A stretch of 59,352 nucleotides of DNA from a phage. Location: sequence record PZ564402.1. The stretch is one strand, 5' to 3'. Of this stretch, positions 4,299 through 56,739 are shown piece by piece. The notes under the pieces were generated by a model. It saw only the letters and a list, made by a program, of their open reading frames with translations, did not search any database and was not told the origin of the DNA. A program made the translations under genes and the position numbers. The first letter of the stretch is position 1. Every line of letters starts with the position of its first letter.

Positions 4299-6881
4299 TT
4301 AAACTTCGTCATCCCACTCGCCCGGTACAACTTTACCGACGATTTTTTCCACCTCCGCGTTATGCTTTTTCAATGTTTTCTGCGCCCATTCGGAGTTAAG
4401 TTTTCCAGACTCGTCGTACGCACCTTTGACACGCTTTCTGACGTACACGCGACCGGACTTCCCGCCGAATTTCAGTACGCCGCCCGGCTTAAATCCGATC
4501 TCCATAAGCATGTTTTTGAGGCGAGACGTTTTCGGCATTTCCACATCTTCGGTTTCAAGGAAGGCGTCTCGCAACGATGGTACGAAGATGATGTCGCGGT
4601 GGACGCCCGGCGTTGTCCCGTCACGCAGCATTGATACTACCGCACCTTCTACCCCATCGTTTGACGCGTCGGCCATGATGGAAAACGCTTCGGTGTCCTG
4701 CGGTGCATGGCCTTTGTGGTCAAAGTCCTCGCTGATCTCCCATTCGAGGAACCATTTCTTCAATGCAGGGACGTGGTTGTCGATCGCCCGGTACACGTTC
4801 TTGAAGAAGCGCGAGCGTTCCGCCTTCGACCCGTATACCCGCTCCATGTCCAGATGATTTTCGGCCTGCGTGGACACTACCAGATAACGACGCTGGTTTT
4901 CATCGAGTGGCAACGCGTTAAAGTGGTTAGTGAACATCATTTTACTACTGGTGTTCACGACAACCTTTGGCTTGCGGCCTTTCGGTTCCACCTGAAAACG
5001 GTCATTGGTGATATACTCTTTCTGCCGCTCGATGGCGCTGTAGCGGTCGCCCTTGTCGTACACCTCTTCCACGATTTTCAGGATGTCGCCTTCCGCCCAA
5101 TCACTGAAACGGCCGTTCATCACGGAGTTTGAAACGTAGCCCACGTTTTTGCGTCCTAACATGGCTGACATGAGCACGCCTAACGTCGATTTACCGGAAC
5201 CGTGCGCGCCGCGAATCAGTAACGAGTAGTTGATGCGCTTCGTCGGGTGCTGGATAATCCACGCCATCCAGTCCATAACGTATCGGCGTTCCTTGTCATT
5301 CGGGAAAAGCACGACAAAGAAGTCCTTGATGATCTCCACGGCCTTTTTATCGTACGGCGAAAGCTCGTCGGCAGGCTCCGGAATGGAATCCGGGTCGAAA
5401 GAGTTGAGCCACGTCTTCCCGGACTCGTCTATAAAGAATTCCGGGCCATTTACCCCCGGCTTCGGCTTCCACAAGGTTTCTTCCATATCACCGTGCATCG
5501 CCGGGTAGTACATGGCGTCACAAACGATAGGGATCGGCCTGACCAGCGATGCAAAAGTGATAGGTTTAATCGTTTCTTCCTCGAATTTGCACATATTTGC
5601 GTACGCGAAGTCGAAAGCGCCCTTAGAAATGTAAGAACCGGACGATTTATCGATCAAACAGTCATTTTCTTCCGAAAAAACGAATTTTTTCAGCCAAATC
5701 GGCATTTCTTTTGAGCCATAATCGAAGCCTAATTGCTCCTTTTTATCGTTCGCAGTCATCCGGTAGTTCTTGATCCGCAGGTACGCTTCGGCCGCAACTT
5801 GGACGATCGTCTTACGGGTCATGCCGAAAATCTGCTCTTTGCGGAAGGATTCGGCCCATGCGTTCCAGTCTTTCTCGTCAGTACACTCGGCAAACGCCTC
5901 GCGGTACTCGATGGCCTTCTCTTCCTGCTCGGCTTTCTCGATTTCACGAACTTCGGTGATGATCGAGCCTAAAGTTACGAGGCGGGATGCGTTGTGCGCG
6001 AAGCCCTTATCCCACTTGTATTCGAAATCACCATCGTCGAAGTTGTGCGCCTGCATGGCCCACTCGCGGGCAATGGATTTCGCTTCGTCCTGATCCCGGC
6101 AGGAGATTTGCAGCGCGGCCAGCACCTTGATGTAGTTCTCGTAATCCTCCGGATTCGGGTACTTCATGACAAGATCGCGAAGGTCTTCGTACGTGCCGTC
6201 CCATTTCCGGATACCCGCCGTTGCCGCCCAATCCTCTTCGTCCGCCGTTCCGATGGCTTCGTACCCGTTCATCGGGCGCTTGACCATCGTCCAGCCCTGC
6301 TCTTTGGCGTAACGGTCAAACTCCGCCGCGATTTCACGCGCGGTATCGAGGCTGATCTCTTCGAGGTCGAAATCGGCTGCGTTGTTCAGCGGATTCTCGT
6401 CGTCGAGCCAGTAATAATCGCGGTTGGTGTCCGGGTGGATACCGTACGCGACGAACTGCTGGCCGTCGGCGAGGATTTCAACCGCATGGCGCTGGCCGAA
6501 GTCGTCTTCCCATACGCCGGACTTCACTTTCGAGAATGGCGATTCCGTCCGGAACAGAAAGAGTTTCTTTGGTGCCCGTCCGATACGACATGGCGCGCGG
6601 CCAACATTCTCCAGCACCCAATCCGCCATATGCGCCACGGCGTCTTCATCGTAAACGTCGATGTCAACCGCCGGGGTGTATTTGGTCAGAATCCCGATGC
6701 CGTTTTTCGTGTAGCGTTCCGCCCAACGCTGGATCTGCTCCTTATCGTTAATTGTTCTTTCCCAATCCTTACCGATGGGGCGTTTACCCGCGCCCTTCTT
6801 ATCGGCGTCCGGGGCGTAGATAGGTACAACGGTGTACCCATTCCCCCAAAGCGTTTCGCCGTACTCTTGCCAGTAATTCAT
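4299..6881 (-). CDS. bifunctional primase-polymerase / SF3 (D5-like) helicase, 860 aa
   Basis: N-terminal prim-pol motifs (VDIDVYDED, YGIHPD), Walker A GAHGSGKST in C-terminal half; acidic C-terminus WDDEV. Confidence 0.8.
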   Translation of the reverse strand: MNYWQEYGETLWGNGYTVVPIYAPDADKKGAGKRPIGKDWERTINDKEQIQRWAERYTKNGIGILTKYTPAVDIDVYDEDAVAHMADWVLENVGRAPCRIGRAPKKLFLFRTESPFSKVKSGVWEDDFGQRHAVEILADGQQFVAYGIHPDTNRDYYWLDDENPLNNAADFDLEEISLDTAREIAAEFDRYAKEQGWTMVKRPMNGYEAIGTADEEDWAATAGIRKWDGTYEDLRDLVMKYPNPEDYENYIKVLAALQISCRDQDEAKSIAREWAMQAHNFDDGDFEYKWDKGFAHNASRLVTLGSIITEVREIEKAEQEEKAIEYREAFAECTDEKDWNAWAESFRKEQIFGMTRKTIVQVAAEAYLRIKNYRMTANDKKEQLGFDYGSKEMPIWLKKFVFSEENDCLIDKSSGSYISKGAFDFAYANMCKFEEETIKPITFASLVRPIPIVCDAMYYPAMHGDMEETLWKPKPGVNGPEFFIDESGKTWLNSFDPDSIPEPADELSPYDKKAVEIIKDFFVVLFPNDKERRYVMDWMAWIIQHPTKRINYSLLIRGAHGSGKSTLGVLMSAMLGRKNVGYVSNSVMNGRFSDWAEGDILKIVEEVYDKGDRYSAIERQKEYITNDRFQVEPKGRKPKVVVNTSSKMMFTNHFNALPLDENQRRYLVVSTQAENHLDMERVYGSKAERSRFFKNVYRAIDNHVPALKKWFLEWEISEDFDHKGHAPQDTEAFSIMADASNDGVEGAVVSMLRDGTTPGVHRDIIFVPSLRDAFLETEDVEMPKTSRLKNMLMEIGFKPGGVLKFGGKSGRVYVRKRVKGAYDESGKLNSEWAQKTLKKHNAEVEKIVGKVVPGEWDDEV

Positions 6882-7237
6882 TCAAGGATTTCCCCTGTTT
6901 CGCTGTCAGTTTTGATCCAAGAAGGGTTAGTCAGCCAGTGGGGGCGGATTCCGGTAAGCGGTACCGCGCTGCAAACTTTTTCGGCCACTGCGCTCGATAC
7001 GTTATTTTGAGTCGCCCATAAAAGGGTCGAGTAGCTTACTTTCGCGGCCTTCGCTAAGTCCGCCATTCTGGCATTCGGATCGATCTCTAATGCCGCTTGT
7101 GTCATTAGAAATTTGACCTTCATCCGGTCGTCGTTTAAAGCCCATTTCGGAAATCGCATAGCCCAAGCCCTCGCATGTGTGCGTGTTATAGATTTGCGGA
7201 TAGTATATCCGGCCCGTAAATCTGTCAAGCTGGCCAT
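6878..7237 (-). CDS. putative HTH DNA-binding protein (119 aa)
   Basis: ATGA-coupled upstream of primase; HTH-like LAKAAKVSYSTLLWATQNN. Confidence 0.45.
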   Translation of the reverse strand: MASLTDLRAGYTIRKSITRTHARAWAMRFPKWALNDDRMKVKFLMTQAALEIDPNARMADLAKAAKVSYSTLLWATQNNVSSAVAEKVCSAVPLTGIRPHWLTNPSWIKTDSETGEILE

Positions 7238-7316
7238 TTAGTCTGGTACCGCAACCATCTTACGTCCGGAATACAAGGCTTTGAGGTACCCAATCAAAAA
7301 ATTTCGAAAAAAGTGT

Positions 7317-7346
7317 TTGACAGTTATTCGGCGTTTGGGCCATACT
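7317..7346 (+). promoter_or_regulatory. putative sigma70 promoter (-35 TTGACA, 18-nt spacer, -10 CATACT) with upstream A-tracts
   Basis: Consensus -35 in divergent intergenic region upstream of 7399. Confidence 0.4.
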
Positions 7347-7398
7347 TCATCCCGTCAACACGACACGACCTTTTAAACACTTAACGGAGTAGAAAATT

Positions 7399-7818
7399 AT
7401 GTCTGGTATCTTCGAACAACTGCTGGCTGAACAACAAAAAACTAACACCCTGCTGGAAGGCGTTCTGGCAGCATTGAAAGGCGGCGCGGTGAATACCTCC
7501 GCTGACGCTGGTAGCGAAACCACCGAAAAAACCACCACCACCACCAAAGGCGGTGCTAAGGGCGGCGCGAAAGGCGGTGCAGGTAAAACCGAAACTAAAG
7601 CGGCCAAGCCTAAGCACACCAAAGACGAAGTAGTCGCTGCTGTCGTCGCGGTTAAAGACGCGTTCGGCGCGCCGGAAGCCAAGAAAATCACCGCTCACTT
7701 CGGCCTCGCGAGAGTCGCGGAAGCGAAGGAAGAACACTTCGACGAAATCGTTGAAATGTGTGAAGCCAAACTGGCTGAAAAAGATGAAGGCGGTAACGGC
7801 GAAGAAGACGACGTTTAA
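7399..7818 (+). CDS. low-complexity Lys/Gly/Thr-rich protein with acidic C-terminus (139 aa)
   Basis: GGAG RBS; KGGAKGGAKGGAGK repeats; ends EEDDV; followed by hairpin terminator. Confidence 0.6.
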   Translation: MSGIFEQLLAEQQKTNTLLEGVLAALKGGAVNTSADAGSETTEKTTTTTKGGAKGGAKGGAGKTETKAAKPKHTKDEVVAAVVAVKDAFGAPEAKKITAHFGLARVAEAKEEHFDEIVEMCEAKLAEKDEGGNGEEDDV

Positions 7819-7833: not shown

Positions 7834-7858
7834 CGGCTCCCTTCGGGGGGCCGTTTTT
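7834..7858 (+). terminator. putative intrinsic terminator/attenuator (CUUCGG hairpin + T5)
   Basis: GGCTCCCTTCGGGGGGCC followed by GTTTTT immediately after 7818 stop. Confidence 0.45.
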
Positions 7859-7880: not shown

Positions 7881-8210
7881 GTGACCAGCATTACTTTCAC
7901 CAACGTTTCTACTACAGGCGGCGCAGTTCTCGCGCGCACTTGGGCGGAGTTTCGTTTTCAAATCGGTGATCGCGATGTGCTGTTCAGAGTTACTTCCCCT
8001 GTTTCGAAACACGAAGCGCCGCTGCTCGTAACCCACGCATCATCCGGTCTTCGAGTATGCGACGTCTGGTGGGACGACGTGGCGAAGACTCGCTTTAACG
8101 CAGGCCGCAATAATTACAGCGGGGCAGGCGCTAGGGCATTAGTAGCGACGATTGAGCGAGTCGGCCAACACCGATTCCTCAACGCGATAAAGGCGTATCC
8201 GAATGAGTAG
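7881..8210 (+). CDS. hypothetical protein (GTG start, 109 aa)
   Basis: GGAGAGGA RBS 5 nt upstream of GTG. Confidence 0.5.
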   Translation: MTSITFTNVSTTGGAVLARTWAEFRFQIGDRDVLFRVTSPVSKHEAPLLVTHASSGLRVCDVWWDDVAKTRFNAGRNNYSGAGARALVATIERVGQHRFLNAIKAYPNE

Positions 8211-9543
8211 TAAGTCACTGTTAGTCCGCATCATGCGGGAATTCGGCGGTGGCGGCCACTCAATCTTCGCGCCTTCTGCGTCAGCGCGGTGGATAGCATG
8301 TTCCGGGAGCCTGATAGCCGGGCTTTTCGAGCATGACGAAACCATCTACGAGGCGGCGGAAGGCACGGTGGCCCACGGAATCGCCGAACAATGGCTGCGA
8401 ACGGATGTCCGGCCAACCCATTTAATCGGCACTGTCGAGACGATCACGGAAGGCGATGTCAGTCATGACATCCCGATCACGCGGTCAATGCTCGACGCAG
8501 TTCAGGAATACGTGGACTGGTGCCGATTTGAAGAGGGTGAAATGTTCACGGAAATTCGGGTATGGTTCACAGACCTGATGCCGCGAGCAAACCCGGATGA
8601 ACCTGACGAAGAACCGGAAGAGTTTGTCGCTCAGGGCGGAACGGCGGATAACATCATCATCCGTGACCGCACCTTGATCGTGACCGACCTGAAATACGGT
8701 ACTGGTGTTCAGGTTTTCGCGGAAGGGAACCCGCAGGCGCTACTTTACGCGTACGGTGCGTACCGCGCTTTTGCGGATGAATACGAGTTTGACCGTATCA
8801 TCATCCGGATTGCGCAGCCGCGACTCGACCACTTCGATACGTGGGAAATCACGCTTGACGAGTTGTTGGAGTTTGCGGAGTACGCCCGGGAGCGGATTGC
8901 AGCGGCATGGAGCCTTACCGCGCCGCGCCGCGCATCCCTGAAAGGGTGTCGCTTTTGCCGGGCAGCACATAACTGCGCAGCGATAGCGTACATGATGGAA
9001 TGTGCAGTGGGTGGGGATGTGGAATTCCTTGAAGCCGAATTCGGGGAGGAAGAAATGTCAGTATTGCGTGATGCGCTGGCGCAGGAGTATAAATTCCGGC
9101 GTGCGCAGTTCGGAAACCTGACAACCGAGCAGATGGCTAAGATCCTGCCATACCGCAAGGTGGTCGAAAACTGGTTCTCGCGCCTTGACTTCGAACTGGA
9201 ACGCCGCGCAATGAACGGTGAGAAGGTACCGGGTCAAAAGCTGGTTGAGTCGCGGACAAACCGCAAATTCGCCAACGAGAAAGATGCGATCGCGTTGTTC
9301 AAGTTCCTCGACATCGAAGAGGACAAGTACATCGAGCGCAAACTGCGTACTCCGGCGCAGATGGAAGAAGTGCTTAGGGATGAATTGGGCGTGTCCCGGG
9401 CTGGCGCGCCAAACATTATCGCGGGGATCGTTTACAAGCCGGAAGGCAAACCGACACTGGCACCGCTGACCGATAAGCGGCCACCACTGGACGGCAAGTA
9501 TTCCGGGGCGTGGGACGATGAAGATGATGACGACGAAGTGTAA
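8203..9543 (+). CDS. PD-(D/E)XK (RecB/Cas4-like) nuclease, 446 aa
   Basis: Motifs LIVTDLKYG (D/ExK) and QALLYAYG (QxxxY), Cys cluster CRFCRAAHNC; acidic C-terminus WDDEDDDDEV. Confidence 0.65.
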   Translation: MSSKSLLVRIMREFGGGGHSIFAPSASARWIACSGSLIAGLFEHDETIYEAAEGTVAHGIAEQWLRTDVRPTHLIGTVETITEGDVSHDIPITRSMLDAVQEYVDWCRFEEGEMFTEIRVWFTDLMPRANPDEPDEEPEEFVAQGGTADNIIIRDRTLIVTDLKYGTGVQVFAEGNPQALLYAYGAYRAFADEYEFDRIIIRIAQPRLDHFDTWEITLDELLEFAEYARERIAAAWSLTAPRRASLKGCRFCRAAHNCAAIAYMMECAVGGDVEFLEAEFGEEEMSVLRDALAQEYKFRRAQFGNLTTEQMAKILPYRKVVENWFSRLDFELERRAMNGEKVPGQKLVESRTNRKFANEKDAIALFKFLDIEEDKYIERKLRTPAQMEEVLRDELGVSRAGAPNIIAGIVYKPEGKPTLAPLTDKRPPLDGKYSGAWDDEDDDDEV

Positions 9544-9588
9544 ACCCGTAAAACCGTAGAAAGTAAACCCGTAAAACAGTAAACCGAG
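9541..9588 (+). repeat. five tandem degenerate GTAAA(A)CC repeats in leader of SSB gene
   Basis: TAAACCCGTAAAACCGTAGAAAGTAAACCCGTAAAACAGTAAACC directly upstream of RBS GAGGA. Confidence 0.5.
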
Positions 9589-9597
9589 GATATTAAG

Positions 9598-10194
9598 ATG
9601 GCCGAGAAATTAGTCCCTGCGAAGAAAGTCAAGAATGGCGTGCTGTATAAATCTGGTCACATCAAGATTTCTAACGTACGTGCTTCTTACCCGCACCTCG
9701 ATAAGCCGTACGGCGGCGAAGACGGCGGCGAGCCGAAATACTCGCTGACACTTTTGATGCCGAAAGAAAGCCACGGCGAGATCGAGAAAATCATCCGCGA
9801 GCAGATCGAAGTCACCAAGAAGAACCACAAGACAGGCGCGCTTAAAGTGGCTCCGTCCATGTTGTTCATCAAAGACGGCGACACCGATTTCCCGGACAAA
9901 CCGGAATGCGAAGGGATGTGGGTTATCTCAGCGCGCGAAAGCAAACGCCCGGATGTGTATAACATCGAGCGCGAAGAGTTGACTACTTCTTCCGAAATTC
10001 TGGAAGAGATCTACGGTGGTTGTTGGGTGTCTGTCGTCATCCGTCCGTGGTCGCAGGAAAACAAATTCGGCAAACGCGTCAACGCCAACCTGATTTCCGT
10101 TCTCAAACGCAAAGACGACGAGCCGTTCGGTGAAGGTCGCGTTGACACGTCTGATGCGTGGGATGAAGACGAAGATTGGGAAGACGAAGTGTAA
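9598..10194 (+). CDS. ssDNA-binding protein, T7 gp2.5-like (198 aa)
   Basis: N-terminal ASYPHLDKPYGG...YSLTLLMP resembles gp2.5 YAYIAKPDYG...YKVDLTIP; acidic C-terminal tail DAWDEDEDWEDEV. Confidence 0.6.
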   Translation: MAEKLVPAKKVKNGVLYKSGHIKISNVRASYPHLDKPYGGEDGGEPKYSLTLLMPKESHGEIEKIIREQIEVTKKNHKTGALKVAPSMLFIKDGDTDFPDKPECEGMWVISARESKRPDVYNIEREELTTSSEILEEIYGGCWVSVVIRPWSQENKFGKRVNANLISVLKRKDDEPFGEGRVDTSDAWDEDEDWEDEV

Positions 10195-10220
10195 TTCACG
10201 CCCTCGGGCGGTAATTCAAG

Positions 10221-10244
10221 GCCCGCCGTGTGCGGGCTTTTTTC
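10221..10244 (+). terminator. rho-independent terminator (GCCCGC-CGTGT-GCGGGC + T6)
   Basis: Perfect 6-bp stem and T-tract right after SSB gene. Confidence 0.65.
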
Positions 10245-10260
10245 ATATAGGAGCGTTGAC

Positions 10261-12300
10261 GTGACCGATTGCATTAATCTTGACTATGAATCCAGAAGCC
10301 GGGTGAACCTTAAAACGAACGGCTTCGACCGTTATTCGAATGACGAATCGACGAAAGTGCTGATGGGCGCGTGGTCGATCAACGGCGGCGCGGTGCAGCA
10401 CGTAGACCTTCATCGCGGCAAAAAGTTGCCCGGCGAACTGCGTGAAGCGCTGGAAGACCCGGACGTGGAGAAGTGGGCCTTTAACGCTCAGTTCGAACGC
10501 GTGATAACCCGCCGGGTGCTCGGCATTAAGACGCCGTACAAAGCGTGGCGCTGTACGATGGCGATGGCGTATATGCTTGGCTTCGCGGGCGACCTGCTGT
10601 CGGTCGGAACACAATTGGGATTGCCGGAAGACAAACTGAAAGACCCGGAAGGCAAGCGCCTGATCGACCTGTTCAGCAAGCCGCAGCGCGTCACGAAGAA
10701 AAACCCATTTGAGTGGCGCAACGAAGCGACCGACCCGGAAGACTGGTGGCACTTCTGCCGATACAACGTGCGAGACGTTGAAACCGAACTGGCGATTAAA
10801 GCGCGCCTGATGCGGTACCCGATTCTGGACGCCGAGTGGGATATGTACGCGCTGGATCAGTTCATCAACGACACTGGCGTGATGATTGACCGCGAATTCG
10901 CGTACTCGGCGCTGGCACTCGCAGAAGCGCGCAAACCGCAGATTATCGAAGAAATGGCCGACATTACTGGCCTGAATAATCCAAACTCCCCGGCGCAGTT
11001 AACACCGTGGCTCAAAGAGCGCGGCTATCCGTTCAGTGACCTCCGCAGCGACACCGTCAACAAAGTTATCCGTGAAGCCGATGAAAACGGCGTTGACCCG
11101 GACGCGATCCGCGTGCTGCGGATGCGACTGAACAGCGCGAAAAACTCCCTGTCCAAATACCAGACCATGATTGACGCGGCTGGCGAGGATGGCCGTTTTC
11201 GCTTCTCGCTGCAATTTGCCGGGGCGAGTCGTACGAACCGTTGGGCTGGCCGTCGAATCCAGACCCAAAACCTGCCGAGAACGCCGAAGCTGATTGAGGA
11301 CGTGACCGACCTGTCCATCGTCAACAAGATGATCCACCAGCGTGACCTTGATGCGCTGACGCTGTATGTGGGCGAGCCGATGGACGCGCTGGTGGGCTGC
11401 ATCCGCTCCGCCTTCATCCCGACGCCGGGCTACAAGTTTATCGTTGCCGACCTGTCTTCCATCGAATCCGTGGTTATCGGTTGGCTGACGAACTGCAAAT
11501 GGTTCATGGATACGCTGGCGGCCAAGCACGACCTTTACCGTTCATTCGCGGCCCACTGGCTGCACCTGCCGTACGAAGAAACGAAACCGCACCGCTCGAA
11601 AGCCAAACCTGCAACCCTCGGCGCGGGCTATCGCCTCGGCGGCGGCCACATGGATGACAATGGCAAGAAGACCGGGCTGTGGGGTTACGCTGAAAACATG
11701 GGCGTACACATGACGCAGAAAGAGGCAGAAGAGTCGGTACAGGCGTTCCGCGACCTTTGCCCGGAAATCGTTCAGGCATGGTATGGCCTCGAAAACGCGG
11801 TGTTCAAGGTTATCCGCACCCGTCAGGCCGTCGTGTGGGGCTGTCTGATTATCGAATACACAAAACCATTCCTGACCATCCGTCTGCCGTCTGGACGCAA
11901 AATGTATTACTTCCGCCCGCGTCTGGTCGAGCGCCAGATGACGGTTCAGAAGGGGCCGAAGAAAGGCGAGAAGTACACAAAGACCAACTTCCAGTACGAA
12001 GGCAAGGTGGAGGGCAGTGGCACCAAGTGGGGCAAGATCTACAGCCACGGCGGTAAGCTGGTGGAAAACATCGTTCAGGCACTGGCGCGCGACGTGCTCG
12101 CCGAAGGTCTGAAAAAGGCGCACCGCATGGGCTTCCGCATCGTCATGCACATCCACGATGAAATCGTAACCGAAGTGCCAGAAGACAGCCCGCTGACAGT
12201 GGACGACCTGATCTCCTGCATGGTGGCCGAACTGCCGTGGGCCGAAGGTCTACCGCTTGGCGCTGCCGGGTGGGAAGGATATTTCTACCGTAAGGATTAA
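10261..12300 (+). CDS. family A DNA polymerase with 3'-5' exonuclease domain (GTG start)
   Basis: Exo I DxE (LDYESRS), polymerase motifs RRIQTQNLPR, KPATLGAGY, HIHDEIV; AGGAG RBS 7 nt before GTG; ATG at 10228 rejected as it sits in the terminator hairpin. Confidence 0.85.
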   Translation: MTDCINLDYESRSRVNLKTNGFDRYSNDESTKVLMGAWSINGGAVQHVDLHRGKKLPGELREALEDPDVEKWAFNAQFERVITRRVLGIKTPYKAWRCTMAMAYMLGFAGDLLSVGTQLGLPEDKLKDPEGKRLIDLFSKPQRVTKKNPFEWRNEATDPEDWWHFCRYNVRDVETELAIKARLMRYPILDAEWDMYALDQFINDTGVMIDREFAYSALALAEARKPQIIEEMADITGLNNPNSPAQLTPWLKERGYPFSDLRSDTVNKVIREADENGVDPDAIRVLRMRLNSAKNSLSKYQTMIDAAGEDGRFRFSLQFAGASRTNRWAGRRIQTQNLPRTPKLIEDVTDLSIVNKMIHQRDLDALTLYVGEPMDALVGCIRSAFIPTPGYKFIVADLSSIESVVIGWLTNCKWFMDTLAAKHDLYRSFAAHWLHLPYEETKPHRSKAKPATLGAGYRLGGGHMDDNGKKTGLWGYAENMGVHMTQKEAEESVQAFRDLCPEIVQAWYGLENAVFKVIRTRQAVVWGCLIIEYTKPFLTIRLPSGRKMYYFRPRLVERQMTVQKGPKKGEKYTKTNFQYEGKVEGSGTKWGKIYSHGGKLVENIVQALARDVLAEGLKKAHRMGFRIVMHIHDEIVTEVPEDSPLTVDDLISCMVAELPWAEGLPLGAAGWEGYFYRKD

Positions 12301-12301
12301 C

Positions 12302-12589
12302 ATGGCCGAGCCGATAATCAGAGAATCGAAGGTTGAAAAGCGCTGCTGCGAATACGCGCAGGGCCGTGGGTGGTGGGTATCAAAATTCACCTCCCCCGGT
12401 AAAAAAGCCGTCCCGGATCGTGTGCTGATCCGTGGCGGTATTGTGCTTTTTATCGAATTCAAACGCCCCGGCGAAGAACCAACGGCGCAGCAGTATCACC
12501 GCCATAAGGAAATGCGCAAGGCAGGGGCAAACGTGACATGGGTGGACAATTTTGCAGACTTTAAAAACTACATTATCGCCTTTGAGTAG
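12302..12589 (+). CDS. VRR-NUC domain nuclease
   Basis: Small PD-(D/E)XK-type core FIEFKRPGEEPTAQQ; starts 2 nt after polymerase stop. Confidence 0.6.
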   Translation: MAEPIIRESKVEKRCCEYAQGRGWWVSKFTSPGKKAVPDRVLIRGGIVLFIEFKRPGEEPTAQQYHRHKEMRKAGANVTWVDNFADFKNYIIAFE

Positions 12590-14111
12590 AGCGCTCGCGT
12601 ATTGCCTGCGGACGGTTAAACTGAACCGCAGCGACATGCACGACTATCAGGACGAAGGCGTCCAGTTCATCAAAGACCATCCGTACTGCGGCATGTTCGT
12701 AGACCTCGGCTTGGGTAAGACTGTCATGACCGGGACGGCCATGCTAGACCTGATCGCGGACGGCGAAATCAACAAAGTCCTCGTCGTCGCGCCGAAGCGA
12801 GTGGCCCGTACCGGGTGGCCGACGGAATTCGACGAGTGGGGCCATCTGTGCTTCTACAAGATGTCGATTATCGCCGGAAACGCCAAAGAGCGCGCAGCGG
12901 CCGCGAGTAAGGACTGCCATTTTTACACGATCAGCGTCGATAACATCGCGTGGCTGTGCGAGCACTTCAAGACGAAATGGCCGTTCGACGCCGTGGTGCT
13001 GGACGAGTCGAGCATGTTCAAATCCCACACCTCGCAGCGCTTCAAACTGCTGCGCCGGGTGCGGAAGTACATCAAACGGATCGTCGAGTTGACGGCCACG
13101 CCTGCGGCCGAAGGGTACATGGGTATCTTCTCGCAAATTTACCTGCTGGACGAAGGCGAGCGCTTTGGCTCCACCATCGGCGGTTATCAGGACAACTACT
13201 TCACGCAGAACCGCTACAACTTCAAATGGAAACTTCGCCCCGGTGCGGAAGACGAGATTATTCGGAAGATTTCTGATATATGTTTAGTCATGAAAGCGGA
13301 AGACTACCTTGACATGCACGAACCGAATTTCGTTCCTGTCCCGGTCGAGTTAGACGGGGAGACGGCCGAGCGGTACCGCATGATGGAGGAAGAGAGCCTC
13401 GTCGAGATTATGCCGGACGATTTCGATGAACATCTGGATGACCCAATCGTGATCGAAGCGGAGCAGGCCGCGTCTTTGCAGTCGAAGCTATTGCAGATGT
13501 GCTCAGGCTTCATCTACGACACGAAAATCGTTGGCATAACGCAAGACGACAAGGTCATTAAGCAGAAGGACACGTACAGGCTGCACGACCTGAAATTCGA
13601 TGCACTGGAAGAACTGCTGGAAACCACGCTGGCCGATAAAAACGTGCTGATCGCCTATCACTTCAAGCCGACCCTCGAACGACTGAAAGAGCGGTTTAAA
13701 GATCTGGTGGTCATGGATGATGACGGTAAGTGCATCAAGAAGTGGAACGCCGGAAAGATTCGACTGCTGGCCGCGCACCCTCAGTCAGCGGGACACGGTT
13801 TAAACCTCCAGCATGGCGGCCACGTCATCGTCTACATCGACAATCCGTGGTCACTCGAACGCTTCCTGCAATTCAATGGCCGATTGCACCGTCAGGGGCA
13901 GAAGTACCCGGTTACGATCTACCAGTTCAAAGCCATGCTGCGAACACCGAACGGGCTTCTGGCCGAGACGGCGGACGACGTAGTCATACAGGCGCTGGTC
14001 GAAAAGGAAGACGTGCAGGACGCGTTCTTCGAACTGCTCGAACGTATCAAAGGGCGCATCAAACGCCGCAAGAAATCGAAAAATAAAGGGGTATGGGATG
14101 ACGAAGAGTAA
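12552..14111 (+). CDS. SNF2/SF2 family helicase (start uncertain: TTG 12552 or ATG 12636)
   Basis: Q-motif HDYQDEGV, Walker A GLGKT, DExx-like VVLDES, helicase C motifs; C-terminus VWDDEE. Confidence 0.75.
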   Translation: MQTLKTTLSPLSRALAYCLRTVKLNRSDMHDYQDEGVQFIKDHPYCGMFVDLGLGKTVMTGTAMLDLIADGEINKVLVVAPKRVARTGWPTEFDEWGHLCFYKMSIIAGNAKERAAAASKDCHFYTISVDNIAWLCEHFKTKWPFDAVVLDESSMFKSHTSQRFKLLRRVRKYIKRIVELTATPAAEGYMGIFSQIYLLDEGERFGSTIGGYQDNYFTQNRYNFKWKLRPGAEDEIIRKISDICLVMKAEDYLDMHEPNFVPVPVELDGETAERYRMMEEESLVEIMPDDFDEHLDDPIVIEAEQAASLQSKLLQMCSGFIYDTKIVGITQDDKVIKQKDTYRLHDLKFDALEELLETTLADKNVLIAYHFKPTLERLKERFKDLVVMDDDGKCIKKWNAGKIRLLAAHPQSAGHGLNLQHGGHVIVYIDNPWSLERFLQFNGRLHRQGQKYPVTIYQFKAMLRTPNGLLAETADDVVIQALVEKEDVQDAFFELLERIKGRIKRRKKSKNKGVWDDEE

Positions 14112-14667
14112 TGCGCCACTGGCAACCCGGAATCGCCGCTCTAACGCGCCGGACGCCGACACAGAAGCGATGATCTTTCAGGGCTGCAACATCACGCAAC
14201 TGGCAAAACTGTTCCGCATGGAGCGCCGGGACATCACGCCGAAAATCATGGATGTCCCGCCTATCGGCGAGCGTGGCGGGTACCCGATCTACGCGGTTCA
14301 CGAAGTGGCCCCGTACCTCGTTAAGCCGCTGTACGATGTCGAGACGTACCTGCGCCGCATGAATTTCAAGGATCTGCCGAAGGAGTTGTCGAAAGAGTTT
14401 TGGGCCGGGCAGCGTGCAAAGCAGGACTTCGACATCAAAGCTGGCAACCTGTGGGAAACAGAGAAGGTGATCGAGCACTTCGGCGAGGCGGTGAAGGTAC
14501 TGCGCATGTCGATGCTGCTCATTCCCGACACGCTGGCGCGTCAGGCCGGACTCAGCGAGCCGCAACGTCAGGTCATCACGTCATCCATTGACGCCATGCT
14601 GAACGACCTGTCGAGCGCGCTGATCGAGAAGTTCAACGGCGACGAGGTGGACGACGATGAAGTTTAA
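14098..14667 (+). CDS. terminase small subunit, Nu1-like winged-HTH (189 aa)
   Basis: NITQLAKLFRMERRDITPKIMDVPPIGERGGYPIYAVHEV resembles lambda Nu1 N-terminal DNA-binding domain; directly upstream of and overlapping TerL; C-terminus DDDEV. Confidence 0.55.
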   Translation: MTKSNAPLATRNRRSNAPDADTEAMIFQGCNITQLAKLFRMERRDITPKIMDVPPIGERGGYPIYAVHEVAPYLVKPLYDVETYLRRMNFKDLPKELSKEFWAGQRAKQDFDIKAGNLWETEKVIEHFGEAVKVLRMSMLLIPDTLARQAGLSEPQRQVITSSIDAMLNDLSSALIEKFNGDEVDDDEV

Positions 14668-16732: not shown

Positions 16733-16742
16733 GAGAACCACC

Positions 16743-16997
16743 ATGACACCAGAAGAATGCCGCGCGCAATATCGCCTCATGCTCAAAGAAGCGATGGATG
16801 CGTACCACCAATTAAACCTCGGCGGCTCGGTGCGCGTCGTGGTGGATCAGAACAGTGAACGCGTGGAATATACCGCAGCGAACCGACAAAGCCTATGGGC
16901 CTACATCGTTCGACTGCAAAACGCGATTAATTCGGACAACCCTTGCGCGGCCTTCATGGGCCTACCAAGTTCACCAGCAGGATTCTTATTCCCATGA
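16743..16997 (+). CDS. gpW-like head-tail joining protein
   Basis: Small ORF between TerL and portal; VVDQNSERVEYTAANRQSLWAYIVRLQ resembles lambda gpW core. Confidence 0.45.
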   Translation: MTPEECRAQYRLMLKEAMDAYHQLNLGGSVRVVVDQNSERVEYTAANRQSLWAYIVRLQNAINSDNPCAAFMGLPSSPAGFLFP

Positions 16998-19986: not shown

Positions 19987-20000
19987 TAGGGGATCTTCGG

Positions 20001-20420: not shown

Positions 20421-20432
20421 GGAGCAGCGCAA

Positions 20433-21558: not shown

Positions 21559-21852
21559 ATGCCAAAACGTAAAGTTCTCCAGACCGTCATCGTTTACCGC
21601 GACGGCGCGCGTATCAAGCCTTCCATCGGCGAGATCTTCGATTTCAAACAGGCCGAACTGGACAGCATCAACAAAATCAACCCGGACGCCATTGGCCGCC
21701 CGGTGATGGAAGTTGACGTGGAAAATCAGGCAGCGCAGGAAGCCGCAGCGCAGCAGGCGAAAGCTGAAACGTCCAAAAAAGACGAGAAGGCCGACGGTGC
21801 TAAGAAAAACGCCAAAGACGATAAAAAGTCTGGCGCGGAAGACGAAGTCTAA
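21559..21852 (+). CDS. hypothetical head-associated protein, Lys/Ala-rich with acidic C-terminus
   Basis: ORF between capsid and adaptor genes; ends AEDEV. Confidence 0.5.
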   Translation: MPKRKVLQTVIVYRDGARIKPSIGEIFDFKQAELDSINKINPDAIGRPVMEVDVENQAAQEAAAQQAKAETSKKDEKADGAKKNAKDDKKSGAEDEV

Positions 21853-21854
21853 TT

Positions 21855-45582: not shown

Positions 45583-45863
45583 ATTAAGCCTCGGTTATAT
45601 TCGTCCACGTATTTTTCATTTTCAGGAGATCGGTCTACCTGATTAATCTCGCTGAACTCGCAGGAAATAATATCCCCGCTAGGCAGGCGCACCCGCCAAA
45701 AAATATCCTCTTCACGCGGCCCGGTGCGTTCCCATTCGAGCACGGTTCCGTAGTATTTATGCCCGTTGAATCGGTCAGTGAAATGCACGGAGTCGCCTTT
45801 AATCGGCCAGCCCGGTTTTATCTTGGCACGGTATTTCCGTTTTATAGCCTCAACGTCGATCAT
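45579..45863 (-). CDS. hypothetical early protein (94 aa)
   Basis: ORF coupled to neighbours on minus strand. Confidence 0.45.
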   Translation of the reverse strand: MIDVEAIKRKYRAKIKPGWPIKGDSVHFTDRFNGHKYYGTVLEWERTGPREEDIFWRVRLPSGDIISCEFSEINQVDRSPENEKYVDEYNRGLI

Positions 45864-45938
45864 ACTTCATCATCCTCCAAGTCTTCGTCAAAAAGGTCGG
45901 ACTGGCCGCCGGAAAAGCTGACGACAAGCGGCGCTTTG

Positions 45939-46652
45939 TTAGTTGGCATCGGTTGAGTCCTCGCATAATGGTATGAAGTCCTTCGGGCCGTCGCCTGAAC
46001 CGGGGAAGCGCCGGAAGACCATTTCGTCTTCGATGGTCAGTTTATCCTTGCTGTTCCCGCGACGATAGAAGTCGGCCATGCCGCTGCCGTACGTGCGGTC
46101 AATCCCGGCACCATACGGATCTTGCGGGCAAAGTTCCAGCGCCAGCACTTCTCGCCAGTCCGGCCGATCGATACGGCAGACCGTACGATAGTTGTTCGAC
46201 ACCCGGCAGTATCCCGAGGCAATCAGCGTTTCCACCAACCGGGCCTGTTCCTTGCCACGCATCGTTTTCGCGCGCTTGACGTCCTCTTTCCTTGCCCGGG
46301 CGAAATACTCCCGCGAGAATCGGCTACCGACGTTCTCCGCGAAGATGCGCAGGTCTTTGATGACCATGCCCCATTTCCGGCGGCTACCCTCGTCCACGTA
46401 GCGGATGGCTCCGGCGTAGCGAAGCAGCATGGCGTCGGTCAGGCGGGCATTCTTCGGGTCTTTGGCTTTCCACCAGCCGTACACTTCCACCATGCGGGCC
46501 ATCGCCTTGTCGCTATACCACAACTCGGCGTGGCTGGTGGGCGAGTATTCCGGGTAAGACTTTGCGCCGCCGTCAAACGCCCGGTAGCAGTACCAGATCC
46601 CGCCGCTGTACTGGAAGTGCGGTATCTTGTGAAGTTCTTTCATCGTAGCCAT
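45939..46652 (-). CDS. hypothetical early protein (start at internal ATG MATMKEL)
   Basis: GAGGA RBS before ATG 46652; ATGA-type overlap with upstream gene. Confidence 0.5.
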   Translation of the reverse strand: MATMKELHKIPHFQYSGGIWYCYRAFDGGAKSYPEYSPTSHAELWYSDKAMARMVEVYGWWKAKDPKNARLTDAMLLRYAGAIRYVDEGSRRKWGMVIKDLRIFAENVGSRFSREYFARARKEDVKRAKTMRGKEQARLVETLIASGYCRVSNNYRTVCRIDRPDWREVLALELCPQDPYGAGIDRTYGSGMADFYRRGNSKDKLTIEDEMVFRRFPGSGDGPKDFIPLCEDSTDAN

Positions 46653-48521: not shown

Positions 48522-48726
48522 CGCTGTCCACCTCGACTTCGAATGTGCGCGGAACGGTCATGGTCAGCACGTCATTCTCGGTGAACGGTGACAGCGGTTC
48601 GTCGCCCGGCTGGAAGCGCAGCGTGACGCTGCCGACGTTGTGATACGTGATATAGCGAAGGCGGAACTGCTCGCCAAAGATGGTCGCGAGTACGCCCGGC
48701 TTAACGTCTCCTGCGGCAATTTTCAT
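48511..48726 (-). CDS. hypothetical early protein (71 aa)
   Basis: ORF. Confidence 0.4.
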   Translation of the reverse strand: MKIAAGDVKPGVLATIFGEQFRLRYITYHNVGSVTLRFQPGDEPLSPFTENDVLTMTVPRTFEVEVDSDGR

Positions 48727-49016
48727 GGTAAAAGTCCTTCTGGCAAATTATCTATGTGGATAACAGTCGGGGTGTAGCCTTCCTTTATGATGCGACCTAC
48801 CCATTCAAACTCCGGCGTTTTTTGCAGATAAATCACACGCTGTTCGTCGCGCAATGACAGCGGACACGGCCACTCGCCCATGTTCCCCCGTATGATGTTC
48901 GCACCATAATGCTCCGCGATTGCGATCTGCCCCTTCGGCTCAATCTCTGGCGCGCCTTCGCCATAAACGATCACGATGTCATACACGGTCATAGTCTCCA
49001 GTCTAACGGCTCCCAT
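48723..49016 (-). CDS. hypothetical early protein (97 aa)
   Basis: ORF. Confidence 0.4.
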   Translation of the reverse strand: MGAVRLETMTVYDIVIVYGEGAPEIEPKGQIAIAEHYGANIIRGNMGEWPCPLSLRDEQRVIYLQKTPEFEWVGRIIKEGYTPTVIHIDNLPEGLLP

Positions 49017-50245: not shown

Positions 50246-50932
50246 TTAAATCTCGTCCCACATCTTGATCCAGCGGTTCCGGATCTTGGCCGATACGTTA
50301 GCCAGTGGTGCGCCGATTTCCAGTAGCGTTTCACGGTCGATATACTCGTTGGGGTGAATGCGGTCAGTCGCCGGGTCGAAGATGTGGATGGCCGCGCCGA
50401 ACCCGGCCGACGTGATTTCGCTGCTGCCTTCCTTCGGCCGGAACCAGACTGGCGGTTCGAACCCGATGCGCCCTTTGATGAAGATGGTGCGCGTGGCGAT
50501 GGTGTCCGGCCACCAGCTTTCCGACGTCGCGGACTTGGTCAGCCAGATGGTGCCTGCGCCTTTGGCCCGCTCCTCGTCGGCCTTGCGCATGATGTGGGTC
50601 ATCCCTGTCAGGTGTTCTTTCCCGGCGCGCTTCTGGCTGTATGGCGGGTTAGCGTAGGCCCAAACGCGGGTGTTCGAGTCGAACCCGTCGCTGGCGTGGA
50701 TCTCGGCCAGACGCTTCGCCCAATCCTGCCGCAGCGCGTTATCTTCGGCCGTAAAGAAACGCTGGCATTTGGCGTTCTGGCCGTCGGTGAACAGGTCAAG
50801 CACGATTGGCCCGTACAGCTTGTTAATCGCTTGGAACAGCCATTCCGGCGTACGCCATTGGTCGCCGATCAACTTCGGTTCGTGCTCGTCCATGCCTTTC
50901 AGCGCGTTCAGCGCATCAACGTACTGGCTCAT
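50246..50932 (-). CDS. dam: DNA N6-adenine methyltransferase (phage Dam type)
   Basis: Catalytic NPPY motif (AYANPPYSQ) and N-terminal WRTPEWLF typical of phage Dam MTases. Confidence 0.7.
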   Translation of the reverse strand: MSQYVDALNALKGMDEHEPKLIGDQWRTPEWLFQAINKLYGPIVLDLFTDGQNAKCQRFFTAEDNALRQDWAKRLAEIHASDGFDSNTRVWAYANPPYSQKRAGKEHLTGMTHIMRKADEERAKGAGTIWLTKSATSESWWPDTIATRTIFIKGRIGFEPPVWFRPKEGSSEITSAGFGAAIHIFDPATDRIHPNEYIDRETLLEIGAPLANVSAKIRNRWIKMWDEI

Positions 50933-53635: not shown

Positions 53636-53935
53636 TCATATGTCGGGGTTACTGTAAATAAGATTCCAGTATTTGTACTCCTTCAAGTCCAGTTCAACGA
53701 CACAAGGGTCATCCAGCGCGCTCAGACAGGTGCCATAGTCCTCGACAAAGACGCAGGAGGACTCCGGATGATGCAGCAGGCGCACCCGGCGGTAGTTCAG
53801 GTGCCATTCCGGGCTGAACACATGGTTCTCCGGCTGGCGTATCAGCATGATCTGGCCTGTCGTTCTGACCTGCCAGTATTGGTCTACTTGGGGCGTGGCA
53901 TAGGCTCCCATATTGTTACTCCTTTTTGTCCGCAC
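53636..53935 (-). CDS. hypothetical early protein (99 aa)
   Basis: ORF. Confidence 0.4.
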   Translation of the reverse strand: MRTKRSNNMGAYATPQVDQYWQVRTTGQIMLIRQPENHVFSPEWHLNYRRVRLLHHPESSCVFVEDYGTCLSALDDPCVVELDLKEYKYWNLIYSNPDI

Positions 53936-54149
53936 TATCCCGGTAAACGCGGGTGCCCATCTTCCCGTAGATCTGGTCTTGCAGCGTAAAACGGATGGAC
54001 AGGCGGATGTTAAGCCGATAGCCCATGCGACGCAGATAGCCGAGATCCTGCGGCTTCACGCCCTCGATAAAGAACGACTCGCCGTCCTTCATTCCGAGCA
54101 GAAGTTTTTCGTGAGTTTCACGCACGCTTTTGTCGGTAGTCGCGGCCAT
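53916..54149 (-). CDS. hypothetical early protein (77 aa)
   Basis: ORF. Confidence 0.4.
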   Translation of the reverse strand: MAATTDKSVRETHEKLLLGMKDGESFFIEGVKPQDLGYLRRMGYRLNIRLSIRFTLQDQIYGKMGTRVYRDSADKKE

Positions 54150-54151: not shown

Positions 54152-55225
54152 TTAAACCTCGTCGTCGTCTTCGTCGTTCAGCGTTCCGGTGTACTCAACA
54201 ACCTGCCCGGCCTCGTCCAGCACGCTGATCACCGCACGCAGGGACTTATCGAGTTGGAACAGGTTCGCCATCATGGTCAGGAACTGGCCGCCATCGGTGC
54301 CGTAACGTTCGAGCGTGGCGTCGTAGTTCGCATCGACGTCGGCCTCGCCGATATGGATACCGGACAGGATGGCTTTGTCGGACAGGCGGAAGTACACGGT
54401 GTCGATGCCCGGGCATTGCGTATCGACTTCGAGATCCAGTGCGCGGACAGTCCAGTGGCGGGACAGCAGGTCAACCACCGCCTCGTCTTTGAAGATGTCC
54501 GTGTCCTTCATCTTAACGTCGTCACCATCGTCGTGTTTCAGGTGGATAAACGCATCGCCCTTGATGCCGTCCTGCTGGCCGAGAACCGCGCGCTGCATTA
54601 ACTGGCGCAGCTCATACTCGCTCGGCAGGAGGTGTTCGACGGGCCATGTGCCGAGCGCGGTACGGATCAGCGCGCTGCACTCTTCTGCCGTCTTCGCGCT
54701 CGACGTGAACACGTACACGAACGGGGCGGACAGGATGACGTTGACGCGGGACGGGCGGATAGGCGCGTATTTCAGCATTTCCGCTTCCACGTCGTCCTTC
54801 ATCTGCGCCCAATCCTTGCGGTTCGGCTCCCAACCCTCGATCTCTTTCTCCCGCAACGCGGCCATGCGCTTCACGACTTCATTTCGTACGCTGACGCCGG
54901 GCAACACACGTTCGCGCTTTTCGATCTGGAAGACGATGGCGTTTGTCCCGGGGATGGCGAGCGCAAACTTGCTGTCAACCTCTTCGCCGTACGCTGCAAA
55001 GCCCATTGTCTTGTAAGACGCCTCCGGCGGATCTGACACTTCATGCTTTTCGAGTGCATCGCTTAACGCTCCTTTAGCGAAAGACGTCACCGCCTCTTCG
55101 TCAACGTTCGGCAGATTCAGGATCAGGCGGTGCAGCGGCTTGACCTTCTCGTTACCGTCGTTGGCCGCGTCGTACAGCGCGCCGAGGTGCAAGATAATGG
55201 CTTTCTCATAACCCTTGATTTTCAT
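54152..55225 (-). CDS. RdgC-like recombination-associated protein with acidic C-terminal tail
   Basis: Segments VLPGVSVRNEVVKRMAALREKE and AEECSALIRTALGTWPVEHLLP resemble E. coli RdgC as I recall it; ends NDEDDDEV. Confidence 0.5.
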   Translation of the reverse strand: MKIKGYEKAIILHLGALYDAANDGNEKVKPLHRLILNLPNVDEEAVTSFAKGALSDALEKHEVSDPPEASYKTMGFAAYGEEVDSKFALAIPGTNAIVFQIEKRERVLPGVSVRNEVVKRMAALREKEIEGWEPNRKDWAQMKDDVEAEMLKYAPIRPSRVNVILSAPFVYVFTSSAKTAEECSALIRTALGTWPVEHLLPSEYELRQLMQRAVLGQQDGIKGDAFIHLKHDDGDDVKMKDTDIFKDEAVVDLLSRHWTVRALDLEVDTQCPGIDTVYFRLSDKAILSGIHIGEADVDANYDATLERYGTDGGQFLTMMANLFQLDKSLRAVISVLDEAGQVVEYTGTLNDEDDDEV

Positions 55226-55568: not shown

Positions 55569-55869
55569 TCTGCACTTCCGGGCATGGCATATTCGTCATG
55601 GCCCAATCCAGAAACTTCACGATGTACATGCGCATGGCCGCACATTCGTCCGCGCCACGGGCCTTGCCGTGCTTCGCGATGGCCGGGTCGCCGGACTGAT
55701 AGAAGGTCACGCGGTGATTCGTGGCAGACGACACCTTGATCCCGGTGTGCGTGGCGTGGATGGTCACGCTGTAGATCCGCTCGATAGCGCGGAACGCCGG
55801 GACGACGTCGATGCGGCCTTTCGGGTGCATGGCGTTGTTCACCATCAACGCGGTATTAGTCGGCTGCAT
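55534..55869 (-). CDS. hypothetical early protein (111 aa)
   Basis: ORF. Confidence 0.4.
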   Translation of the reverse strand: MQPTNTALMVNNAMHPKGRIDVVPAFRAIERIYSVTIHATHTGIKVSSATNHRVTFYQSGDPAIAKHGKARGADECAAMRMYIVKFLDWAMTNMPCPEVQNVVVEVAGGRH

Positions 55870-56296
55870 TCAGCGGTTCCTCTTTCAGACGGTAGGTGAT
55901 GGTGTCCTGGCGAGTCGCGTCGATTTCCAGTTCAGGCATCTGCCCGGTGATCAGGCGGGACGGCGTCAGCACGGCGGTGCGCAGGCCGTTCTCGAACATG
56001 ATGTTGGCCGCCGTGACCAGCGAAATGCTTTCGATATGGTCTTGGGTCTGGTCGAGGCGGCGCTGTAGCAGTTCTACCTTCTCGGCGTTCTCGTCCGGAA
56101 GGTCGAAGGCGGCACGCAGCCCGGCGATCAATGCGATGGCGTCCGCGCGGGTCAGGGGGGTGGCGATCTCGGTGTCACCGTTGTCCTTCTCGATGTAGAT
56201 CTCGCCCTCTTTTTGGCCGGGCTTCTTATAGATAAAGGCCGTACGGGCAATGTCGCGTACCGGACTCAGTTCAATAGGGTGGTGCGTTGTTTTCAT
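55856..56296 (-). CDS. hypothetical early protein (146 aa)
   Basis: ORF. Confidence 0.45.
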   Translation of the reverse strand: MKTTHHPIELSPVRDIARTAFIYKKPGQKEGEIYIEKDNGDTEIATPLTRADAIALIAGLRAAFDLPDENAEKVELLQRRLDQTQDHIESISLVTAANIMFENGLRTAVLTPSRLITGQMPELEIDATRQDTITYRLKEEPLNAAD

Positions 56297-56367
56297 CGGT
56301 GTGCGTCCTATAGGGTGTCAGGTCAAAAGGGTGGTACGCCATTTTTCAGGCGTGCCGTCCTACGTTT

Positions 56368-56739
56368 TTAAACTTCGTCGTCGTCCGCGACGTCGGTGGC
56401 CGTACAGGTTACGACGGCCTGAATGAACATGCGGCCAGACGGGTAAGTCACCAGCGCGGACTCCATGCTGAACCGTTGGCCGTGGTGCTTCATGGCATTC
56501 CGGATGGAGGAATTTAGGCTGGCCCGCATCTTCGCTTTGAGGGCATTGGCCTCGTCCTGTACCTGCGAAAGCGTACGGTCAAGCGGGAGTTCTTGGGACA
56601 GGGTGTACACGCCACCGACTTCCAGCGCAATGAGGTTCCCCACGACGCTGTACACGCGCACGCGTGACGGCAGTTCAACATCCGGCTCGGTCGTCATCAT
56701 TGCGCCAGTCAGTTCGGCCGGGCTTAGTTCTTTGCTCAT
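56368..56739 (-). CDS. hypothetical early protein with acidic C-terminus (123 aa)
   Basis: GGAG RBS; first gene after promoter 56782-56810; ends DVADDDEV. Confidence 0.5.
   Translation of the reverse strand: MSKELSPAELTGAMMTTEPDVELPSRVRVYSVVGNLIALEVGGVYTLSQELPLDRTLSQVQDEANALKAKMRASLNSSIRNAMKHHGQRFSMESALVTYPSGRMFIQAVVTCTATDVADDDEV

Follow-up and report, generated by a model that had tools for sequence, protein, structure and literature searches.

About eleven proteins encoded in sequence record PZ564402.1, whose full 59,352 bp (hereafter the window) represent an essentially complete genome of a Chi-like Salmonella phage (Chivirus, Casjensviridae), end in variants of one short acidic tail. The tail can be described as an optional aromatic residue (W, F or Y), three to nine Asp or Glu residues and a terminal aliphatic residue with a free carboxylate, and it is shared between a primase-helicase, an exonuclease, a protein that binds single-stranded DNA (SSB), an SNF2-family helicase, the small terminase subunit (TerS), an RdgC-like protein, a Dam-type methyltransferase, the protein in the position of lambda FI (hyp97) and the proteins hyp139, hyp123 and hyp29 (Table 1). 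We estimate a probability of roughly 55% that the tail is a C-terminal short linear motif through which these clients would bind one shared receptor, with the tail-less family-A DNA polymerase of the phage as the most likely receptor.

A 76-gene model of the window was built by synteny with the curated relative BSPM4 and supplemented with open reading frames (ORFs) found only in the window. Nine of the 76 proteins end in [DE]{3}V, compared with 0.012 expected from composition, and the comparison with shuffled proteins proposed in the original prediction ruled out chance frequency, with a mean of 0.014 such proteins and a maximum of 2 across 20,000 within-protein shuffles. Throughout the proteome (18,789 residues) the string occurs 14 times, nine of them at the extreme C-terminus, and exactly the same nine genes were recovered from all six-frame stop-to-stop segments (n = 3,040). 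The same scan returned only gp2.5 (…SWDEDDEESEEADEDGDF) and gp4 (…STDWSNDTDF) from T7, and no real gene with a motif end from lambda. The acidic-tail observation is thus confirmed as real and far beyond chance. All nine C-termini named in the original prediction are present at their genes; eight of them end in [DE]{3}V, and the SNF2 helicase ends in Glu instead of Val. Two members were added, hyp29 (…LEDDEV) and the Dam methyltransferase (…MWDEI).

Such endings could in principle be set at the nucleotide level, either as a Shine-Dalgarno sequence or other signal for the next gene or through gene conversion homogenizing the tails. GAGGTG (Glu-Val) would make a strong Shine-Dalgarno sequence, and in several cases the tail codons run up to or into the following start codon (helicase/TerS, TerS/TerL (the large terminase subunit), hyp97, RdgC and hyp29). 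However, Glu is encoded by GAA in eight of the nine V-ending tails (GAG only in RdgC), all four Val codons are used (GTT, GTG, GTC and GTA), spacers of 54-77 nt, intrinsic-terminator-like hairpins or no gene at all come after six of the tails, and the motif end is absent from the other five frames. A DNA signal is therefore ruled out by codon usage and spacing, and gene conversion by the shortness of the tails, their synonymous codon diversity and convergent gain on non-homologous proteins, leaving the nucleotide-level explanation with virtually no weight. The codon diversity, together with the spacers and terminators, shows that selection acts on the peptide rather than on the DNA. Within the clade of V-ending relatives, the four terminal residues show 60-100% conservation, against 17-42% identity for the twenty before them (100% and 26%, respectively, for TerS and its linker), a pattern characteristic of a short linear motif borne on a linker that evolves quickly.

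Comparison with relatives showed that the last residue of the tail changes across the client set as a whole. The comparison covered 77 replication-module loci, with polymerase identities from 98% down to 37%, together with several complete genomes and a contig of the nearest outgroup; loci centred on RdgC were dropped because the RdgC alignment was too divergent (19-29% identity), and whole GenBank genomes were used instead. Clients end in Val in every genome with at least 74% polymerase identity (V class), and L095, the nearest outgroup (its SSB is 67% identical), has Ile at the end of the primase, the hyp139 homologue, the exonuclease, the SSB and TerS (5/5 aliphatic-ended clients). The I class also includes L020/L023 and Aeromonas phage pAEv1812, in which eleven proteins end in [DE]2-3-I, including Dam, a DnaQ-like exonuclease, RdgC and the FI-position protein. 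Pseudomonas phage UF_RH7 has approximately 10 proteins ending in …DDDL or …DDEL, an L class to which L030, L027/28, L031/33 and L039 also belong, and L042/L054 carry 'GL' endings. Mixed endings were found in Cronobacter phage JC01 (F, I and L) and in PM87-like Proteus phages (L, I, M and F), with several clients lost in the latter. When one representative was taken per clade (<70% polymerase identity, 14 clades), the terminal residue was concordant in 107 of 119 within-genome client pairs, against 50.1 ± 4.7 (maximum 73) in 20,000 column-preserving permutations. A neighbour-joining tree of the polymerase places the I class in three separate positions and the L class in several, suggesting at least four concerted switches of three to seven proteins each, an approximate count from a tree without support values. 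A shared reader is the best explanation for a last residue that stays constant across unrelated folds of one genome yet varies from lineage to lineage. The original prediction of one hub with many clients is therefore backed by the comparison, since a shared receptor predicts concerted switching and independent tails do not; the identity of the hub is still drawn from T7.

Tail sharing travels with the duf2800-gp2.5-polA replication module, from Proteobacteria to Staphylococcus. This module was defined in an earlier study that described its gene context and did not mention shared C-terminal tails (PMC8093625). It is present in the window, where the DUF2800 nuclease, the PF10991 SSB and the family-A polymerase lie adjacent and in order at 8203-12300 with no bacterial-type ssb; the fuller order is exonuclease-SSB-polymerase-VRR-NUC-helicase. 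The podovirus BPP-1 has a shared ending of its own, …[DG]L[VI], on the exonuclease (…VEDLV), the SSB (…AADLV), a methyltransferase (…VADLI), TerS (…AAGLV) and a small ORF. As the BPP-1 TerS (Sf6-type) and methyltransferase (N6_N4) are non-homologous to the DUF1441 TerS and PF05869 Dam of the window, these functional classes joined the client set on independent occasions. The exonuclease of Staphylococcus phage phi2 ends in AEDDFDKL, which copies an SSB tail repeat (AEDDFDEL). No such sharing was found in Edwardsiella phage eiAU-183, indicating that the feature is common in the module and not universal. Within a deep clade (L055-L085, polymerase 37-40% identical), the SSB ends in …DDDFL[SANG] and the exonuclease has a sub-terminal [DE][DE]F (…NDFMEV, …EDFKND), so that the two share an internal 'acidic-Phe' element and not the terminal aliphatic residue.

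These patterns bear on whether a receptor is needed at all, as each tail might instead fold back onto the DNA-binding surface of its own protein as an electrostatic autoinhibitor or specificity filter, with the likeness between tails a mere consequence of DNA binding by all clients. Autoinhibition through an acidic C-terminus is common, as in gp2.5, gp32 and HMGB1, and nearly all of the clients do bind DNA. Deletion of the Enc34 SSB tail, moreover, unmasks dsDNA binding (PMC5686142). Autoinhibition does not, however, predict an invariant terminal aliphatic residue, a concerted switch across 5-11 unrelated folds per genome, or the same local ending on the non-homologous TerS and methyltransferase of BPP-1, and we regard it as quite unlikely.

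The distribution of tail classes among hosts addresses a further alternative, in which the receptor would be a host protein, such as a chaperone, a protease that recognizes C-termini or one of the proteins that bind the C-terminus of the host SSB. The bacterial SSB C-terminus (…DFDDDIPF) resembles the tail in its aromatic residue, acidic run and hydrophobic end. No PDZ, TPR or similar receptor-like domain was detected by Pfam among approximately 60 window proteins, which favours a host receptor and also sets the system apart from class III PDZ and EEVD-TPR recognition; a TPR-consensus match at polymerase residues 487-517 was rejected as spurious, being weak and with no passing stretch. Among the phages compared, though, tail class follows phage lineage, not host taxonomy. 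V-class phages infect Salmonella, Klebsiella, Serratia, Providencia and Enterobacter, whereas among other phages of these closely related Enterobacterales an Erwinia phage is L, a Cronobacter phage F/I, and E. coli phage E21 differs from the Salmonella phages by grouping with the mixed class of the Proteus phages. The 120 SSB homologues we retrieved are all aliphatic-ended (L 72, I 35, V 9, M 4) and none ends in …PF. Clade-specific tail classes and the absence of this ending argue for a phage-encoded reader, as does the presence of the system from Proteobacteria to Staphylococcus, and a host receptor appears improbable.

We infer a single, phage-encoded receptor and, on the basis of T7 homology, take the polymerase to be the most likely one. 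The tails of T7 gp2.5 and gp4 bind a front basic patch of the polymerase gp5 (K587/K589/R590/R591), and a DTDF peptide is placed on gp5 in PDB 6P7E (PMC12339929). The T7 analogy raised in the original prediction was borne out by the SSB, which has a gp2.5/Enc34-ORF6-type oligonucleotide/oligosaccharide-binding (OB) fold according to PF10991 and Foldseek (Enc34 ORF6, 5ODL, template modelling score (TM) 0.87-0.97; T7 gp2.5, 1JE5, probability 1.0), and by the T7 scan, which yielded exactly the two known tail clients. As in T7, a homologous SSB fold is accompanied by a family-A polymerase without a tail, both the SSB (…WEDEV) and the primase-helicase (…GEWDDEV) are tailed, and the tails combine Trp, an acidic run and a hydrophobic last residue (…SWDEDDEE…DGDF and …TDWSNDTDF in T7). 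The polymerase C-terminus is tail-less in every lineage examined, and only three non-structural proteins without a tail are conserved in V, L and I genomes alike: the polymerase, a 95-aa VRR-NUC-type nuclease (12302-12589) and TerL (14657-16732). The DnaQ-like proofreading exonuclease among the pAEv1812 clients fits tethering to the polymerase. Between motifs B and C, the polymerase carries a basic insertion (…LPSGRKMYYFRPRLVERQMTVQKGPKKGEKYTK…) that aligns with the front basic patch of T7 gp5, a weak and confounded signal; the insertion is 41-63 aa long with a net charge of +3 to +11 in multi-client lineages and 34-35 aa with -1 to +4 in the deep clade, a difference broken by Salvo/Sano and confounded by phylogeny, and the insertion does not tell the lineages apart. 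Alignment with T7 gp5 gave no evident equivalent of the thioredoxin-binding domain.

Under this proposal, the polymerase would bind the acidic run through a basic surface and recognize the last side chain in a small hydrophobic pocket, and tails placed on disordered, fast-evolving linkers would tether the DNA-transaction proteins to it. The proposed clients are the primase-helicase, exonuclease, SSB, SNF2 helicase, RdgC, the Dam and phosphoadenosine phosphosulfate (PAPS)-reductase-like modifiers, TerS, the FI-position protein and the proteins without assigned function, which would exchange on the polymerase as on a tool-belt, in competition with the abundant SSB tail. Several observations weigh against it. 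No polymerase column tracks tail class in a scan for specificity-determining positions, in which I-class and L-class genomes were contrasted for the polymerase, SSB, VRR-NUC, TerL and the clients and no protein stood out. The basic insertion is present, and at its most basic, in Salvo/Sano, where only the SSB is tailed. The V-clade SNF2 helicase lacks the terminal aliphatic residue, and the mixed endings of JC01 and the PM87-like phages suggest relaxed specificity or more than one receptor. There is no obvious reason for TerS and the FI-position protein to bind a polymerase, and an abundant SSB tail would out-compete ten other clients for a single site.

The main rival to the polymerase is the DNA-binding groove of the SSB itself, in which the tails would act as ssDNA mimics, so that a client would bring along or encounter free SSB through its tail and pass it on, or displace it, wherever ssDNA is generated or required. 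The crystal structure of Enc34 SSB places the proximal acidic tail of one molecule in the DNA-binding sheet of the next, and deletion of the tail alters DNA specificity (PMC5686142); an AlphaFold2 (AF2) model of T7 gp2.5 likewise docks its own tail in the groove (PMC12339929). An abundant hub with many sites suits 10-12 clients better than a scarce polymerase does, many clients make or process ssDNA (helicases, exonucleases and RdgC), the SSB retains the tail in all lineages, including those in which other clients no longer have it, and the exonuclease end of phi2 copies a repeat of the SSB tail. Yet the last 11 residues of Enc34 SSB, including WDEDEV, are disordered in the crystal (PMC5686142), and in the AF2 model of the window SSB the tail has a predicted local distance difference test score (pLDDT) of only 54-62, compared with 90.6 for the body. 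A tail and ssDNA could not occupy the groove at once, so that clients would not be recruited to DNA coated with SSB; among the clients, Dam, TerS and the FI-like protein belong to dsDNA transactions or packaging; and no SSB column tracks tail class. Columns co-varying with tail class, statistics on the polymerase insertion and AF2 confidence in the tail gave no signal separating the two candidates. We view the SSB groove as a doubtful, though not negligible, candidate beside the polymerase. In a subgroup of the SSB homologues (P0015-P0029, P0034, P0078 and P0094), the OB fold is separated from the terminal acidic run by a basic insert rich in K, R and S (e.g. …SGGKKSKPSDDDDDDL).

Set against known systems, the tails differ from those of T7 in the number of clients (10-12 versus 2, with the addition of the exonuclease, SNF2 helicase, RdgC, methyltransferase, PAPS-reductase-like enzyme, TerS and FI-position protein) and in their end, which is Phe in T7 and a lineage-specific V, I or L here, with F only in JC01 and in none of the 120 SSB homologues. 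The primase-helicase also differs, being of the Prim-Pol/PriCT_2/DUF5906, D5-like type instead of the DnaG-DnaB-like type of T7. What appears new relative to T7 is a docking principle that takes in about five-fold more clients, reaches into modification and packaging, and has a specificity residue able to evolve. As in the interactome of the bacterial SSB tip (…DDDIPF), an acidic, hydrophobic-ended C-terminal peptide would be the currency of a many-partner DNA-metabolism network; there, however, one tail meets many pockets, whereas here 10-12 proteins bear the tail, implying one pocket, and no …PF end is found. The sliding-clamp tool-belts (the beta-clamp motif and the PCNA PIP box) are comparable in that a short motif brings polymerase accessories, nucleases, helicases and a methyltransferase to one platform, although the window has no clamp gene and the motif chemistry is unrelated, making the analogy purely functional. 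Lambda terminase offers a parallel for packaging (contacts of the Nu1 C-terminus with gpA and of the acidic gpA C-terminus with the portal, and FI), in keeping with the lambda-like late operon of the window and the …SGEDE end of lambda gpA. Unlike in lambda, the TerS and FI-position tails match those of the replication proteins and switch with them, which, together with the non-homologous TerS of BPP-1 and its non-gpA-type TerL, argues against a purely TerS-TerL contact. In the literature, with most subscription journals outside the scope of the search, we found no account of a tail shared across many proteins or of lineage-specific switching, and the SSB tail is discussed only as a feature of the SSB.

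Table 1. Tail-bearing proteins of the window and the candidate receptor, with C-termini (codon positions of the tail) and endings of orthologues.
Feature	Coordinates	Strand	C-terminus (codons)	Orthologue endings
Primase-helicase (Prim-Pol + PriCT_2 + DUF5906/D5-like)	4299..6881	-	…GEWDDEV (4302-4316)	…DDEDEV (V clade), …NIDDI (L095), …DDEEI (pAEv1812), …DVDDDL (UF_RH7)
hyp139, core client (phrog_7721)	7399..7818	+	…GEEDDV (7801-7815)	…NDDDI, …EGDGL, …DDDDDL, …ADDDF
DUF2800 / PD-(D/E)XK exonuclease	8203..9543	+	…AWDDEDDDDEV (9511-9540)	…DDDEI, …SMDDDL, …VDNEI
gp2.5/Enc34-type SSB (PF10991)	9598..10194	+	…AWDEDEDWEDEV (10159-10191)	
Family-A DNA polymerase (PF00476), candidate receptor	10261..12300	+	…GWEGYFYRKD (tail-less)	
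SNF2-family helicase	12636..14111	+	…KNKGVWDDEE (14094-14108), variant: W and acidic run, no aliphatic end	…FDDDDL, …EEDDEI (aliphatic end in L and I clades)
Small terminase subunit TerS (DUF1441, phrog_141)	14098..14667	+	…DEVDDDEV (14641-14664)	…DDEEI, …DEDEDL, …DEDEEI
hyp97 (DUF7443), lambda FI packaging-protein slot	21559..21852	+	…GAEDEV (21838-21849)	…NDDEI, …DADDDL, …KEEDL
hyp29 (MPTNKAPLVVSFSGGQSDLFDEDLEDDEV), 29 aa	45860..45949	-	…LEDDEV (45863-45898)	
Dam-type N6-adenine methyltransferase (PF05869, E 6.7e-30)	50246..50932	-	…KMWDEI (50249-50260), variant	…EEEEI (pAEv1812), …SFDDL (PM87), …RWEDL (JC01)
RdgC-like protein (PF04381)	54152..55225	-	…NDEDDDEV (54155-54175)	…PEDDEL, …DDGEI, …DDDDDI, …VEDDM
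hyp123 (DUF7609)	56368..56739	-	…ADDDEV (56371-56385)	
Example window tail peptide with free C-terminus			GAWDDEDDDDEV	

Individual clients differ in how the tail is carried. Among genomes of approximately 97% identity, the primase has two linker-tail versions, …VVPGEWDDEV and …KPDPFDDEDEV (window 4302-4340 versus L009/L010/L018), indicating a mosaic C-terminal region that keeps the aromatic-acidic-V pattern in both. The SNF2 helicase tail forms a subclass in the V clade and L095, with a conserved [VIL]WDDE[DE]1-2 lacking the terminal aliphatic residue and preceded by a K/R-rich stretch (RIKRRKKSKNKG; window 14040-14111). Hyp139 has no Pfam match; its N-terminal helix is joined by a disordered linker rich in T, G and K to a small domain of three helices, after which comes the tail. 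The mean pLDDT of its AF2 model (57.9) was too low for a fold search, and its orthologues bear the local tail of their genomes. Hyp97 is linked to lambda FI by position alone, with no sequence similarity to it.

Hyp29 is what an in-frame deletion has left of a PAPS-reductase-like client, with the first 17 codons fused to the tail. Its counterpart in phage Chi is a 299-aa PAPS-reductase-like protein with the end …FQSDLFDEEFEDDEV, which adds the intact enzyme to the clients of Chi. At the hyp29 locus (45579-45949, minus strand), approximately 50 nt of the 5' end and approximately 40 nt of the 3' end, encoding the tail, are retained, and a different gene of 94 aa (45579-45863) is inserted downstream. 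The Dam gene is labelled 'phosphoadenosine phosphosulfate reductase' in relatives, though Pfam identifies it as Dam, and the label looks like a propagated mis-annotation. Hyp123 had no match in the PDB, and its weak orthologues in PM87 and pAEv1812 are tail-less, making it a client in the V clade only; conversely, hyp77 (window 53916-54149, …SADKKE) is tail-less and its UF_RH7 orthologue (L005 46762-47061) ends in …EEEDDL. Client membership has therefore been gained and lost between lineages.

Over 12 kb, the window is 97.7% identical to phage PST-H4 and 96.7% to phage Chi. Its late operon (14098-25305) has a gene order identical to lambda nu1-A-W-B-C-D-E-FI-FII-Z-U-V-G-T-H, with a gpA-type TerL (PF05876 + PF20454). 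ORFs without a BSPM4 counterpart lie at 2974-4251, 48723-49016, 57500-57757 and 58533-59156 and represent variable early-region cassettes; among them, the 143-aa protein at 3820-4251 contains an HTH_37 domain. Strong terminator-like hairpins directly follow the primase (4267-4287, bidirectional), hyp139 (7834-7853) and SSB (10218-10240) genes, and the last of these overlaps an alternative GTG start (10228), which makes 10261 the favoured start of the polymerase. A divergent pair of sigma-70-like promoters was located at 7228-7200 (minus strand) and 7317-7346 (plus strand).

A broader possibility, which we hold only tentatively and consider rather unlikely, is that the tails constitute a lineage-specific C-terminal 'address code', by which one multivalent phage receptor (the polymerase or a pool of SSB grooves) would gather replication, recombination, modification and packaging enzymes into one factory. 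If so, the code would replace the clamp and SSB-tip tool-belts of cells, its switchable last residue (V, I, L, GL or, in BPP-1, DLV) would keep the networks of related co-infecting phages orthogonal, and the tail would predict that hyp139, hyp123 and hyp97 belong to the DNA-transaction machine. The two acidic tails of T7 are a textbook case of replisome coupling, and the device would here be scaled to about a dozen clients. Confirmation of a shared receptor would open a direct experimental route to the hub, as one peptide should pull it down, and would make the naturally occurring V, I and L variants a resource for analysing specificity and redesigning it. The C-terminus would then serve as a sequence handle for assigning uncharacterized phage proteins to DNA-transaction machinery. 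Ultimately, the tails would represent an organizing principle for a replication module that is common among the phages of Proteobacteria and Firmicutes.

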